DNA of 52,210 nucleotides from a virus (lineage: Duplodnaviria > Heunggongvirae > Uroviricota > Caudoviricetes). Below are positions 18,277 to 21,266 of the stretch, in pieces. The translations under genes and the position numbers were made by a program. The notes beneath the pieces are model-generated. The model saw nothing but the letters and a program-made list of their open reading frames with translations, was not told the origin of the DNA and did no database searches. The DNA lies in the IMG/VR virus record IMGVR_UViG_2541047879_000004, positions 1-52,210 of that record; one strand, 5' to 3'. Within the stretch, counting starts at the first letter, position 1. The number at the start of each line of letters is the position of its first letter.

Positions 18277-18352
18277 GGCCCTTTAGCTCAGTGGTGAGAG
18301 CGAGCGACTCATAATCGCCAGGTCGCTGGTTCAAATCCAGCAAGGGCCACCA
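18277..18352 (+). tRNA. tRNA with CAU anticodon (Met or Ile2)
   Basis: Cloverleaf: acceptor GGCCCTT/AAGGGCC, anticodon loop cuCAUaa, TTCAAAT T-loop, CCA end. Confidence 0.8.
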
Positions 18353-18359
18353 TCACATA

Positions 18360-18436
18360 CCGCCATTAGCTCATCAGGAAAGAGCGCCAGCCTTCGAAGC
18401 TGGTTGCGCGGGGTTCAAGTCCCCGATGGCGGTCCA
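18360..18436 (+). tRNA. tRNA-Arg (anticodon UCG)
   Basis: Acceptor CCGCCAT/ATGGCGG, anticodon loop cuUCGaa, TTCAAGT T-loop, CCA end. Confidence 0.75.
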
Positions 18437-18449
18437 TTATCTGCATCAT

Positions 18450-18526
18450 GCGTTGTTAGCTCAGCCGGACAGAGCAATTGCCTTCTAAGCAATCGGTCAC
18501 TGGTTCGAATCCAGTACAACGCGCCA
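18450..18526 (+). tRNA. tRNA-Arg (anticodon UCU)
   Basis: Acceptor GCGTTGT/ACAACGC, anticodon loop cuUCUaa, TTCGAAT T-loop, CCA end. Confidence 0.8.
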
Positions 18527-18761
18527 CACTTATTTTCCCTGGCTCGCTTTTGCGGGCTTTTTTTTAAATGTCTCACAATTCAGGCGGTTGACTGTTGTCT
18601 GGTTTGCGGGGAGTTTGTTAAAAGAAACTGGCATGGTGAATCCCCCTGTGCGGAGGGGCAATCAGCGAGTAGGTATATGGGATAATCGCGGATTCAGGTG
18701 CTGGTACTGAATTCACCGGGAGGCACCCGGCACCATGCAATGGCACATAGCGCCACTCTCC

Positions 18762-18795
18762 AGCCCCTCTCCGGAGGGGCTGTTTATATTGATTT
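18762..18795 (+). terminator. Hairpin plus T-rich tract (terminator-like)
   Basis: AGCCCCTCtccgGAGGGGCT followed by GTTTATATTGATTTT. Confidence 0.5.
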
Positions 18796-18816
18796 TGTCA
18801 GATGTGAGTAAACTGC

Positions 18817-19152
18817 TTATGGACTTTGTTGTTTTAGCCCATAAGGACATATTTGCAGAGTGCAACGGTTATTAAAGCATTCATTCAATACGTTATCTGT
18901 ATTTGTAGGGCATTCCTGGCTGTTTTTGATTAAATTCCAGAATGTTTTATTGAATGGTACTACGTTGTAAATGGTTACAGGTAGCACTTTGTTATTGAGC
19001 ATGATGCCTGTGTGAGTCAGTGTAAATATACTTTCAGGAGGTAAGAAAGCATCCGATTGATACCAGATTATTAATTTTATTTTACTCCATATGACTGAAA
19101 AAGATATTCCGCATGATGGCTGGATAACTGTATCAATCACAATCCACTTCAT
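18817..19152 (-). CDS. Hypothetical Cys-containing protein in AT-rich island
   Basis: 111-aa ORF in strongly AT-rich DNA between tRNAs and esterase gene. Confidence 0.3.
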
Positions 19153-19397
19153 TTAGTTTCCTTGTTTATGCATTGCTGGTGATGTTCTGAAAAGTATAAA
19201 TGATATTTTTGAATGTAAACCATAGAGCAGAATTATTTTTCTGATGTTGTTTATTGTTTATTTAAATGCAGGGTGGTTTATATCTCGTCTTGTAGTTTAT
19301 CCATGCATATCTGCTTGATGATGAGGTTTTTATTTAAGGTATGGTTTTGTGTTTTTTCTGTATTACATGTCAGGTATTTTAAAGAATCATTTTTCAG

Positions 19398-21266
19398 ATG
19401 GTGGAAAGAACCATGGCATTTAAACACTATGATGTTGTCAGGGCGGCGTCGCCGTCAGATCTTGCGGAAAAGCTGACACATAAACTGAAAGAGGGCTGGC
19501 AGCCGTTTGGTAGTCCGGTGGCCATAACCCCTTATACCCTGATGCAGGCGATTGCAGCAGAAGGTGATGTGGTCGTCAGTGGTGCAACTGAGCCGGAGTG
19601 GTACTACGTCATCGTACTGGCCGGGCAATCCAATGCCATGGCTTACGGTGAAGGGCTTCCGCTTCCGGATTCATACGATGCGCCCCACCCACGCATTAAG
19701 CAACTGGCCCGTCGCAACACAGTGACTCCCGGTGGTAAAGCATGCGCATTTAACGACATCATTCCGGCAGACCACTGCCTGCATGATGTTCAGGATATGA
19801 GCGCACTGAATCATCCGAAGGCAGACCTGAGCAAAGGGCAGTACGGCTGTGTCGGCCAGGGCTTACATATTGCCAAAAAACTGCTTCCGTATATCCCGAA
19901 TAACGCGGGGATCCTGCTGGTACCATGCTGTCGTGGTGGTTCGGCATTCACCCAGGGCGCGGAGGGGACATTCAGTGCGGACACGGGGGCCAGCCAGGAT
20001 TCGGCACGCTGGGGTGTGGGTAAACCGTTATATCAGGACCTGATCGCACGCACCAAAGCGGCATTACAGAAGAACCCGAAAAATGTGTTGCTGGCGGTGT
20101 GCTGGATGCAGGGCGAATTTGACATGAGCGCTGCCACCTACGCACAGCAACCGGACCTGTTCACGGCCATGCTGAAGCAGTTCCGTACTGACCTTTCCGG
20201 ATTTAACGCGCAGTGCCATGGCGGCAGTGCTGCAGTTGTACCGTGGATTTGTGGCGACACGACGTATTACTGGAAAAACACATACGGCACACAGTATGAC
20301 TCCGTCTACGGCGCGTACAAAAACAGGGAGAGCGACAACGTTTTCTTTGTGCCGTTCATGACCGACGGTAACGGCAACAACACGCCCACCAACTTACCGG
20401 CAGAAGACCCGGATATTGCTGATGCAGGTTATTACGGCGCGCAATCCCGTAGTAATGGTAATTGGGTATCGTCAAATCGTCCGACACATTTCAGTTCATG
20501 GGCGCGCAGGGGCATTATTTCGGATCGCCTGGCAACCGCTATTCTGAACGCAGCCGGGCGCACCTCAGCCTTCATCAGTGGTAAGGCACCGGAAATCAAA
20601 CCCTCGCCCGGCGTCGACACGCCATCGGGGCCGTCTGAAGATGCATCCGTACGCACAATCTCCCTGTTGCCGACAGCCGGAGAGGCTGCTGCGCAGGGCT
20701 GGACCATTAAGGACGGCGGAATTCAGTTGTCGGGTGGTGTATTTAAGATCACCAAGCAGAGCAATAAAACTTGGTCCCTGATGCATCCGGTGGATGACGC
20801 AGTCTCCCTGCTGACACGGGGTGGCAGACTGAGCTGTAAGTTTCGACTGTCAGGCGCACTGACCAACAACCAGTTCGGTCTGGGAATTTATCTGTATACC
20901 GATGTAGCGTTACCTGACGTCGTGGCGATGACCGGGACTGGTAACCCGTTCCTGATGTCGTTCTTCACCCAGACCACAGACGGCAAACTGAATCTGATGC
21001 ATCACAAGAAAGCCGGAAACACAAAGTTGGGCGAGTTCGGGAATTACAGTAACGACTGGCAGACGCTGGAGCTGGTGTTCACCGCCGGCAGTGCCACGGT
21101 TACTCCGAAACTGAATGGAGTGGCTGGCCCGGCATTCCAGGTCATAAAAGACAGTCTGACACTGGGGCTGAATGCGCTGACGCTGACGGATATTACCAAA
21201 AATGCAGCGTATGGCGTTGAGATAGAAAGTCTGGTGCTGGAGATAAATGCACCGGCATCATCATAA
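19398..21266 (+). CDS. Sialate O-acetylesterase-like protein (NanS-p/YjhS-like)
   Basis: VLAGQSNAMAYGEG motif (GQSN-type); 622 aa; position between tRNAs and holin as in Stx-phage late regions (recalled). Confidence 0.7.
   Translation: MVERTMAFKHYDVVRAASPSDLAEKLTHKLKEGWQPFGSPVAITPYTLMQAIAAEGDVVVSGATEPEWYYVIVLAGQSNAMAYGEGLPLPDSYDAPHPRIKQLARRNTVTPGGKACAFNDIIPADHCLHDVQDMSALNHPKADLSKGQYGCVGQGLHIAKKLLPYIPNNAGILLVPCCRGGSAFTQGAEGTFSADTGASQDSARWGVGKPLYQDLIARTKAALQKNPKNVLLAVCWMQGEFDMSAATYAQQPDLFTAMLKQFRTDLSGFNAQCHGGSAAVVPWICGDTTYYWKNTYGTQYDSVYGAYKNRESDNVFFVPFMTDGNGNNTPTNLPAEDPDIADAGYYGAQSRSNGNWVSSNRPTHFSSWARRGIISDRLATAILNAAGRTSAFISGKAPEIKPSPGVDTPSGPSEDASVRTISLLPTAGEAAAQGWTIKDGGIQLSGGVFKITKQSNKTWSLMHPVDDAVSLLTRGGRLSCKFRLSGALTNNQFGLGIYLYTDVALPDVVAMTGTGNPFLMSFFTQTTDGKLNLMHHKKAGNTKLGEFGNYSNDWQTLELVFTAGSATVTPKLNGVAGPAFQVIKDSLTLGLNALTLTDITKNAAYGVEIESLVLEINAPASS

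Follow-up and report, generated by a model that had tools for sequence, protein, structure and literature searches.

A probable stx-free version of an Stx2c-phage cargo module carries iraL and an STnc100-family small RNA between the tRNA genes and nanS-p

The DNA between a triplet of tRNA genes and a nanS-p-type esterase gene in the viral sequence analyzed here (52,210 nucleotides, referred to as the window) is very probably where the late operon of a lambdoid prophage carries its cargo (“morons”). Two known accessory elements occupy it, in convergent orientation. On the plus strand lies a small RNA (sRNA) gene of the STnc100/EcOnc27 family, and on the minus strand lies a gene that its sequence identifies as iraL. 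In all likelihood, the locus is an stx-free version of a module that Stx2c phages carry together with stx. A preliminary description had seen in it a possible replacement cargo for the toxin genes or a possible remnant of their loss. The sequence features on which that reading drew are real; the locus is neither unknown in function nor a toxin replacement. Reports on iraL, on the STnc100/EcOnc27 family, and on the moron-slot architecture are already in the literature, and the locus is an ordinary one. Its features are as follows.

18277 to 18526, plus strand: phage tRNA triplet of the ileZ-argN-argO type (ARAGORN; Rfam; 91% identity to the 933W ileZ-argN-argO block)
18277 to 18352, plus strand: tRNA-Ile2/Met(CAT) (ARAGORN; Rfam tRNA, 72.5 bits)
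18360 to 18436, plus strand: tRNA-Arg(TCG) (ARAGORN; Rfam tRNA, 59 bits)
18450 to 18526, plus strand: tRNA-Arg(TCT) (ARAGORN; Rfam tRNA, 70.1 bits)
18541 to 18566, plus strand: intrinsic-terminator-like hairpin and T run closing the tRNA operon (7 pairs and then TTTTTTTT; terminator scan)
18565 to 18568, no strand: empty stx insertion point (blastn breakpoints and junction alignment)
18602 to 18791, plus strand: STnc100/EcOnc27-family (PasD-related) prophage sRNA (Rfam RF02076)
18817 to 19152, minus strand: iraL, encoding a predicted IraM-family RssB anti-adaptor of 111 amino acids (aa) (NCBIfam NF007393; identity to CFT073 IraL)
19185 to 19219, minus strand: sigma-70 promoter of iraL (transcription start site [TSS], 19185; -10 hexamer TATACT, 19198 to 19193; -35 hexamer TTTACA, 19219 to 19214)
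19248 to 19264, plus strand: PhoP-box-like direct repeat TGTTTA-N5-TATTTA (-63 to -79 from the iraL TSS, inverted relative to the gene)
19413 to 21266, plus strand: nanS-p-type sialate O-acetylesterase with DUF1737, SASA, and DUF6645 domains (Pfam; “SASA family carbohydrate esterase” in RefSeq entries of near-identical prophages)

The late-region scaffold was described earlier as that of an Stx phage without the toxin genes, and this description is borne out. Q, the tRNA triplet, nanS-p, and the holin gene are present (the Q antiterminator and holin by Pfam). Positions 18126 to 18564 are 91% identical to the 933W tRNA region, nanS-p and holin have homologs in that phage, and no similarity to stxA or stxB was found. 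By blastn, the tRNA block was 91% identical to 933W, the two nanS-p pieces were 85% and 69% identical, and holin was 93% identical. The tRNA genes indeed number three according to both ARAGORN and Rfam; the first is Met(CAT) per ARAGORN, and its homolog is a tRNA-Ile, named ileZ in RefSeq and in the 933W annotation. The terminator that closes the tRNA operon aligns with positions 4386 to 4409 of 933W (L004), where the homolog is annotated as the “terminator upstream of the stx genes.” The esterase gene reported downstream of the tRNAs is of the nanS-p type, with the three domains listed above, is intact (617 aa), and is the first late gene past the cargo slots. Its start codon is probably at 19413 rather than 19398; homology to 933W begins exactly at this codon (window 19412 = 933W 6189). 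A DNA methyltransferase is encoded upstream of the tRNAs.

The gap between the triplet and nanS-p (18527 to 19397, 871 bp) has an overall GC content of 0.385. It contains the tRNA-operon terminator, the STnc100/EcOnc27-family sRNA, and a cassette of 33% GC in which the 111-aa ORF lies on the minus strand. The strong AT richness previously ascribed to the whole 0.87 kb is confined to the right part (18792 to 19397; GC, 0.325), whereas the left 265 bp (18527 to 18791), where the structured sRNA is encoded, has a GC content of 0.521. Two terminator-like hairpins, each followed by a T run, do exist (18541 to 18558 and 18761 to 18782; terminator scan), but the first is that of the tRNA operon and the second that of STnc100. 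Both lie on the plus strand and to the left of the ORF, so that they do not flank it; the scan found no terminator hairpin on the right side of the ORF, nor any on the strand that encodes it. The gap sequence was found in 1,428 of 5,426 complete Escherichia coli genomes (about one-quarter), where IraM is annotated. The region therefore largely does align to ordinary sequence of non-toxigenic lambdoid phages, although its ORF is real and is expressed in CFT073. A 42-aa minus-strand ORF (18621 to 18746; a partial “hypothetical protein” in RefSeq) overlaps STnc100 in the antisense direction and was treated as spurious. PADLOC detected no defense system.

The sRNA gene was recognized by a covariance match to RF02076 that spanned the full model (positions 1 to 206 of 206) with a score of 132.4 bits (gathering score, 47; E = 1e-30). 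The plus strand at 18602 to 18791 would thus give rise to an Hfq-associated sRNA of the STnc100/EcOnc27 family, ending in its own intrinsic terminator (hairpin 18761 to 18782 and T run). Published work covers this family (PMC4104026, PMC12711010, and bioRxiv 10.64898/2026.05.13.724894), and its enterohemorrhagic E. coli (EHEC) homolog, EcOnc27/sRNA103, has been reported to be transcribed and Hfq bound. The position of STnc100 upstream of the prophage esterase gene is conserved in 933W, phage 1717, CFT073, and 640R1, and in 933W and phage 1717 the family sits 3' of stxB. With 208 bits for the 933W copy versus 132 bits in the window, the copy studied here is a diverged variant, and its targets may differ. 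A search for an STnc100 promoter yielded nothing convincing: a conserved TTGACT (18588 to 18593) has no good -10 partner. Convergent sRNA pairs have been described at this moron site (PMC4104026); between 18500 and 19450, AsxR and AgvB (RF02703 and RF02702) had no match at E ≤ 1, and STnc100 alone was found.

The stx slot proper is empty. The blastn breakpoints place window 18564 at 933W 4409 and window 18569 at 933W 5745, and those for phage 1717 are likewise. Both phages carry a 1.34-kb stxAB cassette that separates the tRNA terminator from STnc100; in the window, the flanks of this cassette abut. Two distinct slots are thus present in the module, one for stx upstream of STnc100 and one downstream of it, in the interval between STnc100 and nanS-p, which is filled on the opposite strand by iraL in the window or by AsxR in 933W. 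The AT-rich DNA had been assigned to the position of stxAB; the true stx position is unoccupied (approximately 18565 to 18568), and iraL lies one slot over. The earlier reading of the locus is thereby corrected: the slot for stx is empty, and a second, separate one takes iraL or AsxR.

The minus-strand ORF of 111 codons was correctly located by the preliminary description (18817 to 19152), as was its cysteine content (five Cys, which are invariant across three family members). It is not of unknown function: judged by its sequence, it is iraL, a real coding gene. The ORF matched NCBIfam NF007393 (“anti-adapter protein IraM”) with 162 bits against a curated cutoff of 121, its residues 1 to 110 aligning with profile positions 1 to 113 of 114, and the product is identical at 111 of 111 residues to IraL of E. 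coli CFT073 (WP_000871291.1). Identity to K-12 IraM is 62% over 107 aa, and residues 1 to 78 matched the solved IraM structure (PDB 8TWD) at E = 9e-32. Within the IraM/IraL family, dN/dS values of 0.10 to 0.17 indicate purifying selection. [quoted passage not shown] IraM binds both domains of RssB, whereas IraL binds the N-terminal domain only (PMC4045071). An action of the prophage regulator AppY through IraM was considered, but a paper on AppY states otherwise.

The iraL promoter was located by means of the published 5'-RACE sequence of CFT073 iraL (PMC4045071), which maps to 19185 on the minus strand of the window. The -10 and -35 hexamers are the same as those of CFT073. The two sequences differ at -1, +14, and +31, the last of which adjoins the ribosome-binding site; because of these substitutions, the level of iraL expression could differ from that in CFT073. 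A consensus promoter scan missed the mapped promoter, whose spacer is 15 nt. The scan returned hits at 19260 to 19232 and 19101 to 19074, which were dismissed as chance level (2 found versus 3.4 expected). On its own strand, iraL has no intrinsic terminator detectable by the terminator scan.

K-12 IraM (YcgW) is a PhoP-dependent anti-adaptor that is induced by Mg2+ starvation. It is a member of the same family (NF007393), has the conserved Cys, and likewise targets RssB (PMC4045071). However, DNA homology between K-12 iraM and the window is limited to the coding sequence, the promoters are unrelated, and the K-12 gene adjoins the e14 remnant, with no tRNAs, STnc100, or nanS-p nearby. A close likeness is that to iraL of the CFT073 prophage (Hryckowian et al. 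2014, mBio, PMC4045071), which shares with the window the protein (111/111), the promoter hexamers, the mapped TSS sequence, and the gene order Q, three tRNAs, STnc100, iraL (minus strand), DUF1737/nanS-p, and holin. The CFT073 prophage differs in that it is located at potB, its nanS-p is truncated, and it carries an IS200 and an extra insert of ~640 bp, containing an ORF for DUF3927, in the stx slot; in the window, the slot is empty, the 617-aa nanS-p is intact, and the methyltransferase gene precedes the tRNAs.

Among the Stx phages, the stx2 locus of 933W and Sp5 is ordered tRNAs, stxAB, EcOnc27 (STnc100), AsxR (minus strand), and nanS-p. The scaffold is the same as in the window, with a plus-strand sRNA convergent with minus-strand cargo ahead of nanS-p. 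The minus-strand partner in 933W is the 53-nt anti-sRNA AsxR, whereas that in the window is a protein gene, iraL, in a cassette of ~620 bp, and the window is without stxAB. Phage 1717, an Stx2c phage, has tRNAs, stx2cAB, STnc100, an iraM-like gene (minus strand), and nanS-p in that order, and its block of STnc100, the iraM-family gene, and nanS-p is colinear with window positions 18569 to 20546 (68.8% identity over ~2 kb). Unlike the window, phages 1717 and 2851 and related Stx2a phages have stx2 upstream of STnc100 (stx2c in 1717 and 2851). An iraM-family gene was present in 41 Stx2-phage records. The anti-adaptor homolog of Stx2c phages, a protein of 107 aa, shares 75% identity with IraL; we found no characterization of it in the searched literature.

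These comparisons bear on two ways of deriving the locus from a toxigenic phage. Had an ancestral Stx phage shed stxAB and kept the AT-rich DNA as leftover or filler, this would account for the conservation of the tRNA terminator upstream of the stx cassette and of STnc100 and nanS-p downstream of it. Repeated loss of stx from such prophages is suggested as a possibility in a bioRxiv survey, and a precise loss through recombination between prophages would be traceless. We nevertheless consider such a history very improbable. Searches with StxA2 and StxB2 (tblastn) and with the cassette (blastn) gave no hit with an E value below 0.07 in any part of the window, so that no stx remnant was detected, and the junction at the empty slot is scarless. 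Moreover, the AT-rich cassette cannot be deletion filler because it lies off the stx position and has a homolog beside stx2c in phage 1717. The idea of replacement cargo, in which iraL and stxAB share one slot and a phage carries either, draws on the location of iraL in the interval from the tRNAs to nanS-p, where Stx phages have stx, and on its lower frequency in EHEC/STEC than in commensals (PMC4045071). It is barely credible: the slots are separate, iraL alternates with AsxR rather than with stx, 41 Stx2-phage records contain an iraM-family gene, and Stx2c and Stx2a phages carry stx2 beside such a gene in the same order, in a block colinear with the window. Since the phage 1717 block is colinear with the window (69% identity), toxin and anti-adaptor genes coexist, and phage 1717 by itself already refutes an exchange of one for the other.

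In the reading that we favor, iraL (minus strand, 18817 to 19152, in the 33%-GC cassette) would be transcribed from its own sigma-70 promoter with the TSS at 19185. Because of this promoter and a direction opposing that of the late operon, the gene should be transcribable from a repressed prophage, and we infer that it is expressed in the lysogen of the window. The product would bind the adaptor RssB at its N-terminal domain, as shown for the identical CFT073 protein. RssB so bound would stop delivering RpoS to ClpXP, as in CFT073, and would thereby raise RpoS and the general stress response in exponential growth. Upon induction, Q-dependent late transcription running antisense through iraL would be expected to dampen it. 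A silent or decaying copy without effect in the host, for example one in H-NS-silenced AT-rich DNA, appears quite improbable. The GC content of the cassette (0.325), the three positions near the TSS and in the 5' untranslated region at which the window departs from CFT073, and the second copies in JJ1886, whose -35 element is mutated (PMC4045071), are consistent with silencing or decay, but the ORF is intact and encodes the same protein as the functional CFT073 gene, the hexamers match those of the active CFT073 promoter, and the family is under purifying selection.

Stx2c phages carry an IraM-family gene directly beside stx2c, which could have a bearing on how well EHEC lysogens tolerate stress. 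It is conceivable, if rather unlikely, that the cargo module flanking stx includes IraM-family anti-adaptors as a conserved and regulated part, and not as random morons, with a regulatory link either through a PhoPQ/low-Mg2+ response via the PhoP-box-like repeat or through antisense coupling. When the PhoP box was searched as (T/G)GTTTA-N5-(T/G)GTTTA, the repeat upstream of iraL, which carries one mismatch, was the sole match at ≤1 mismatch in the 52-kb window (local chance, 4.2%). If functional, it would make iraL and its Stx2c-phage homolog responsive to PhoPQ and low Mg2+, like K-12 iraM. The convergent layout without an iraL terminator would, if the second link were true, couple iraL to STnc100 and to Q-dependent late/stx transcription by antisense interference. 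With either link, RpoS stabilization would be tied to whether Stx-type prophages are in lysogeny or induction. The PhoP-box-like repeat occurs at the same offset in CFT073, in phage 640R1, and in the diverged phage 1717 homolog.

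A lambdoid prophage makes up the window, beginning at its own integrase, which adjoins ompW in a 97%-identical relative. The late-region order given in the preliminary description (three tRNA genes, a gap, and a nanS-p-type esterase gene) was confirmed, the gap measuring 871 bp (18527-19397), and the sequence features named there are real. The main features are as follows.

1-1131: integrase ORF
14668-15363: Q antiterminator (PF06323)
15579-15863 and 15870-16667, plus strand: two lower-GC ORFs (94 and 265 aa) between Q and the methyltransferase
17178-18227: DNA methyltransferase
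18277-18526: three tRNA genes
18602-18791, plus strand: STnc100 (RF02076) small RNA, full-length Rfam match of 132 bits (gathering score, 47 bits)
18817-19152, minus strand: iraL ORF, 111 aa (NF007393; CFT073 identity)
19398/19413-21266: nanS-p-type esterase (DUF1737-SASA-DUF6645)
After nanS-p: phage-21-type holin, then lysozyme

The 111-aa minus-strand ORF, previously described as being of unknown function, is iraL. Its product scored 162 bits against the NCBIfam model NF007393 ("anti-adapter protein IraM"; cutoff, 121 bits), is 62% identical to K-12 IraM, and matches WP_000871291.1, from the potB prophage of uropathogenic Escherichia coli CFT073, at 111 of 111 residues. The CFT073 gene for this protein was characterized as iraL by Hryckowian et al. 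in 2014 (PMC4045071), and the RefSeq label is IraM. Residues 1 to 78 match the solved IraM structure 8TWD, and dN/dS values of 0.10 to 0.17 within the IraM/IraL family indicate purifying selection.

An sRNA gene, STnc100, occupies the left portion of the gap; its 3' end is formed by a hairpin (18761-18782) and a T run. The gap is AT rich, as first described, only across 18792-19397 (GC content, 0.325) and not in its left 265 bp (0.521). Two terminator-like hairpins (18541-18558 and 18761-18782) do exist, but rather than flanking the ORF, both lie to its left, on the plus strand. The STnc100 family is akin to PasD of EPEC, and in the Stx2 phage 933W a member located directly 3' of stxB2 overlaps the Hfq-bound sRNA EcOnc27/sRNA103. 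In the induced phage vB_EcoS-640R1 (record L002), two tandem family copies (5562-5755 and 6031-6219; 138 and 132.5 bits) lie upstream of iraL, suggesting that duplication or recombination has taken place within the slot.

Comparison with 933W bore out the view of a Stx-phage-like scaffold without toxin genes. Window positions 18126-18564 are 91% identical to 933W across the tRNAs and a terminator that the 933W record places "upstream of the stx genes." The following 1.34 kb of 933W (stxA2B2) is absent, and homology resumes at 18569, the beginning of the STnc100 region, which locates the stx insertion point at approximately 18565-18568. This point is cleanly empty, and no stx remnant was detected by tblastn or blastn across the whole window. 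In CFT073, by contrast, the slot is filled with an insert of approximately 640 bp carrying a small DUF3927 ORF (17568-18209 of the CFT073 record, L005), a third state besides empty and stxAB. In 933W, the minus-strand anti-sRNA AsxR lies downstream of STnc100; at this place the window instead has the iraL cassette, also on the minus strand. The two sequences become homologous again precisely where nanS-p starts (window 19412; 933W 6189). This place is a moron site bearing convergent sRNA pairs, according to Tree et al. (PMC4104026).

The proposal that the AT-rich DNA replaced stx is contradicted by phages that carry both stx and an iraM-family gene. Of 46 tblastn matches of IraL to phage records, 41 were Stx2c- or Stx2a-converting phages whose homologue is 107 aa long and shares 73.6% of its residues with IraL by tblastn, or 75% in an alignment. 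In the Stx2c phage 1717 (NC_011357.1), the order is three tRNAs, stx2cA, stx2cB, STnc100, the convergent iraM-family gene (5001-5324), and nanS-p, and its STnc100-to-nanS-p block is colinear with window 18569-20546 (68.8% identity over 2,058 columns); iraL is therefore not a stx replacement. STnc100, iraX, and nanS-p thus form an old syntenic module to which stxAB were added upstream. The same uncharacterized 107-aa gene follows stx2cB and STnc100 in phage 2851 and in Stx2c and some Stx2a phage records; in many Stx2-phage records its position is left without annotation.

Transcription of CFT073 iraL is driven by a sigma-70 promoter, and its 5'-RACE product starts ACATCACCAGCAAGGCATAAACAAGGAAACCA (PMC4045071). 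This sequence was placed on the minus strand of the window from 19185; the -10 (TATACT) and -35 (TTTACA) elements do not differ from those of CFT073, and substitutions around the start site occur solely at -1, +14, and +31. A PhoP-box-like repeat, TGTTTATTGTTTATTTA (19248-19264), lies 63 to 79 nt upstream of the start site and is the sole match with at most one mismatch in the 52-kb window (local chance, 4.2%). The phage 1717 locus, 31% diverged, has the variant CGTTTATTCTTTGTTTA at the same offset. K-12 iraM is PhoP dependent, and the repeat is at most suggestive of a candidate PhoP link.

By the mechanism demonstrated for the identical CFT073 protein, IraL would sequester RssB, RpoS would thereby escape ClpXP, and the general stress response would be raised during growth. 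The gene opposes the late operon and has its own promoter, an arrangement usual for lysogenic-conversion genes active in a repressed prophage, and it may be expressed in the present strain. On induction, Q-dependent late transcription might interfere with iraL. A terminator scan found no minus-strand terminator for iraL, and its mRNA may extend antisense into STnc100.

The gap sequence was present in 1,428 of 5,426 complete E. coli genomes (coverage of at least 80%). Published work already covers the gene, the sRNA, and the way the slots are arranged, and the locus is ordinary, known prophage cargo. Neither iraL in the AsxR-equivalent slot nor the iraM-family gene beside stx2c in Stx2c phages was discussed in the literature within reach of the search; both can be seen in public annotation.

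Because they lie in an island of lower GC content (0.415) separating Q from the methyltransferase, the 94- and 265-aa ORFs constitute another cargo slot after Q. Neither had a Pfam, NCBIfam, or PADLOC match; the 265-aa product, whose N terminus appears hydrophobic, matched solely phrog_3630 (unknown function). The tRNA at 18277-18352 was called Met(CAT) by ARAGORN, whereas its homologue is tRNA-Ile (ileZ) in RefSeq and the 933W record, implying a lysidine-modified CAU anticodon reading AUA. The nanS-p/holin intergenic region (21267-21416) had no Rfam match and ends with a strong plus-strand terminator-like hairpin (21351-21375; T run to 21382); a 2026 bioRxiv survey locates the prophage sRNAs PasA/PasC at this esterase-to-holin position. 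The early region encodes the DicF sRNA (4537-4588, minus strand; Rfam, 75 bits) and the sok antitoxin RNA (12492-12667, plus strand; 117 bits), part of a hok/sok-type toxin-antitoxin module.
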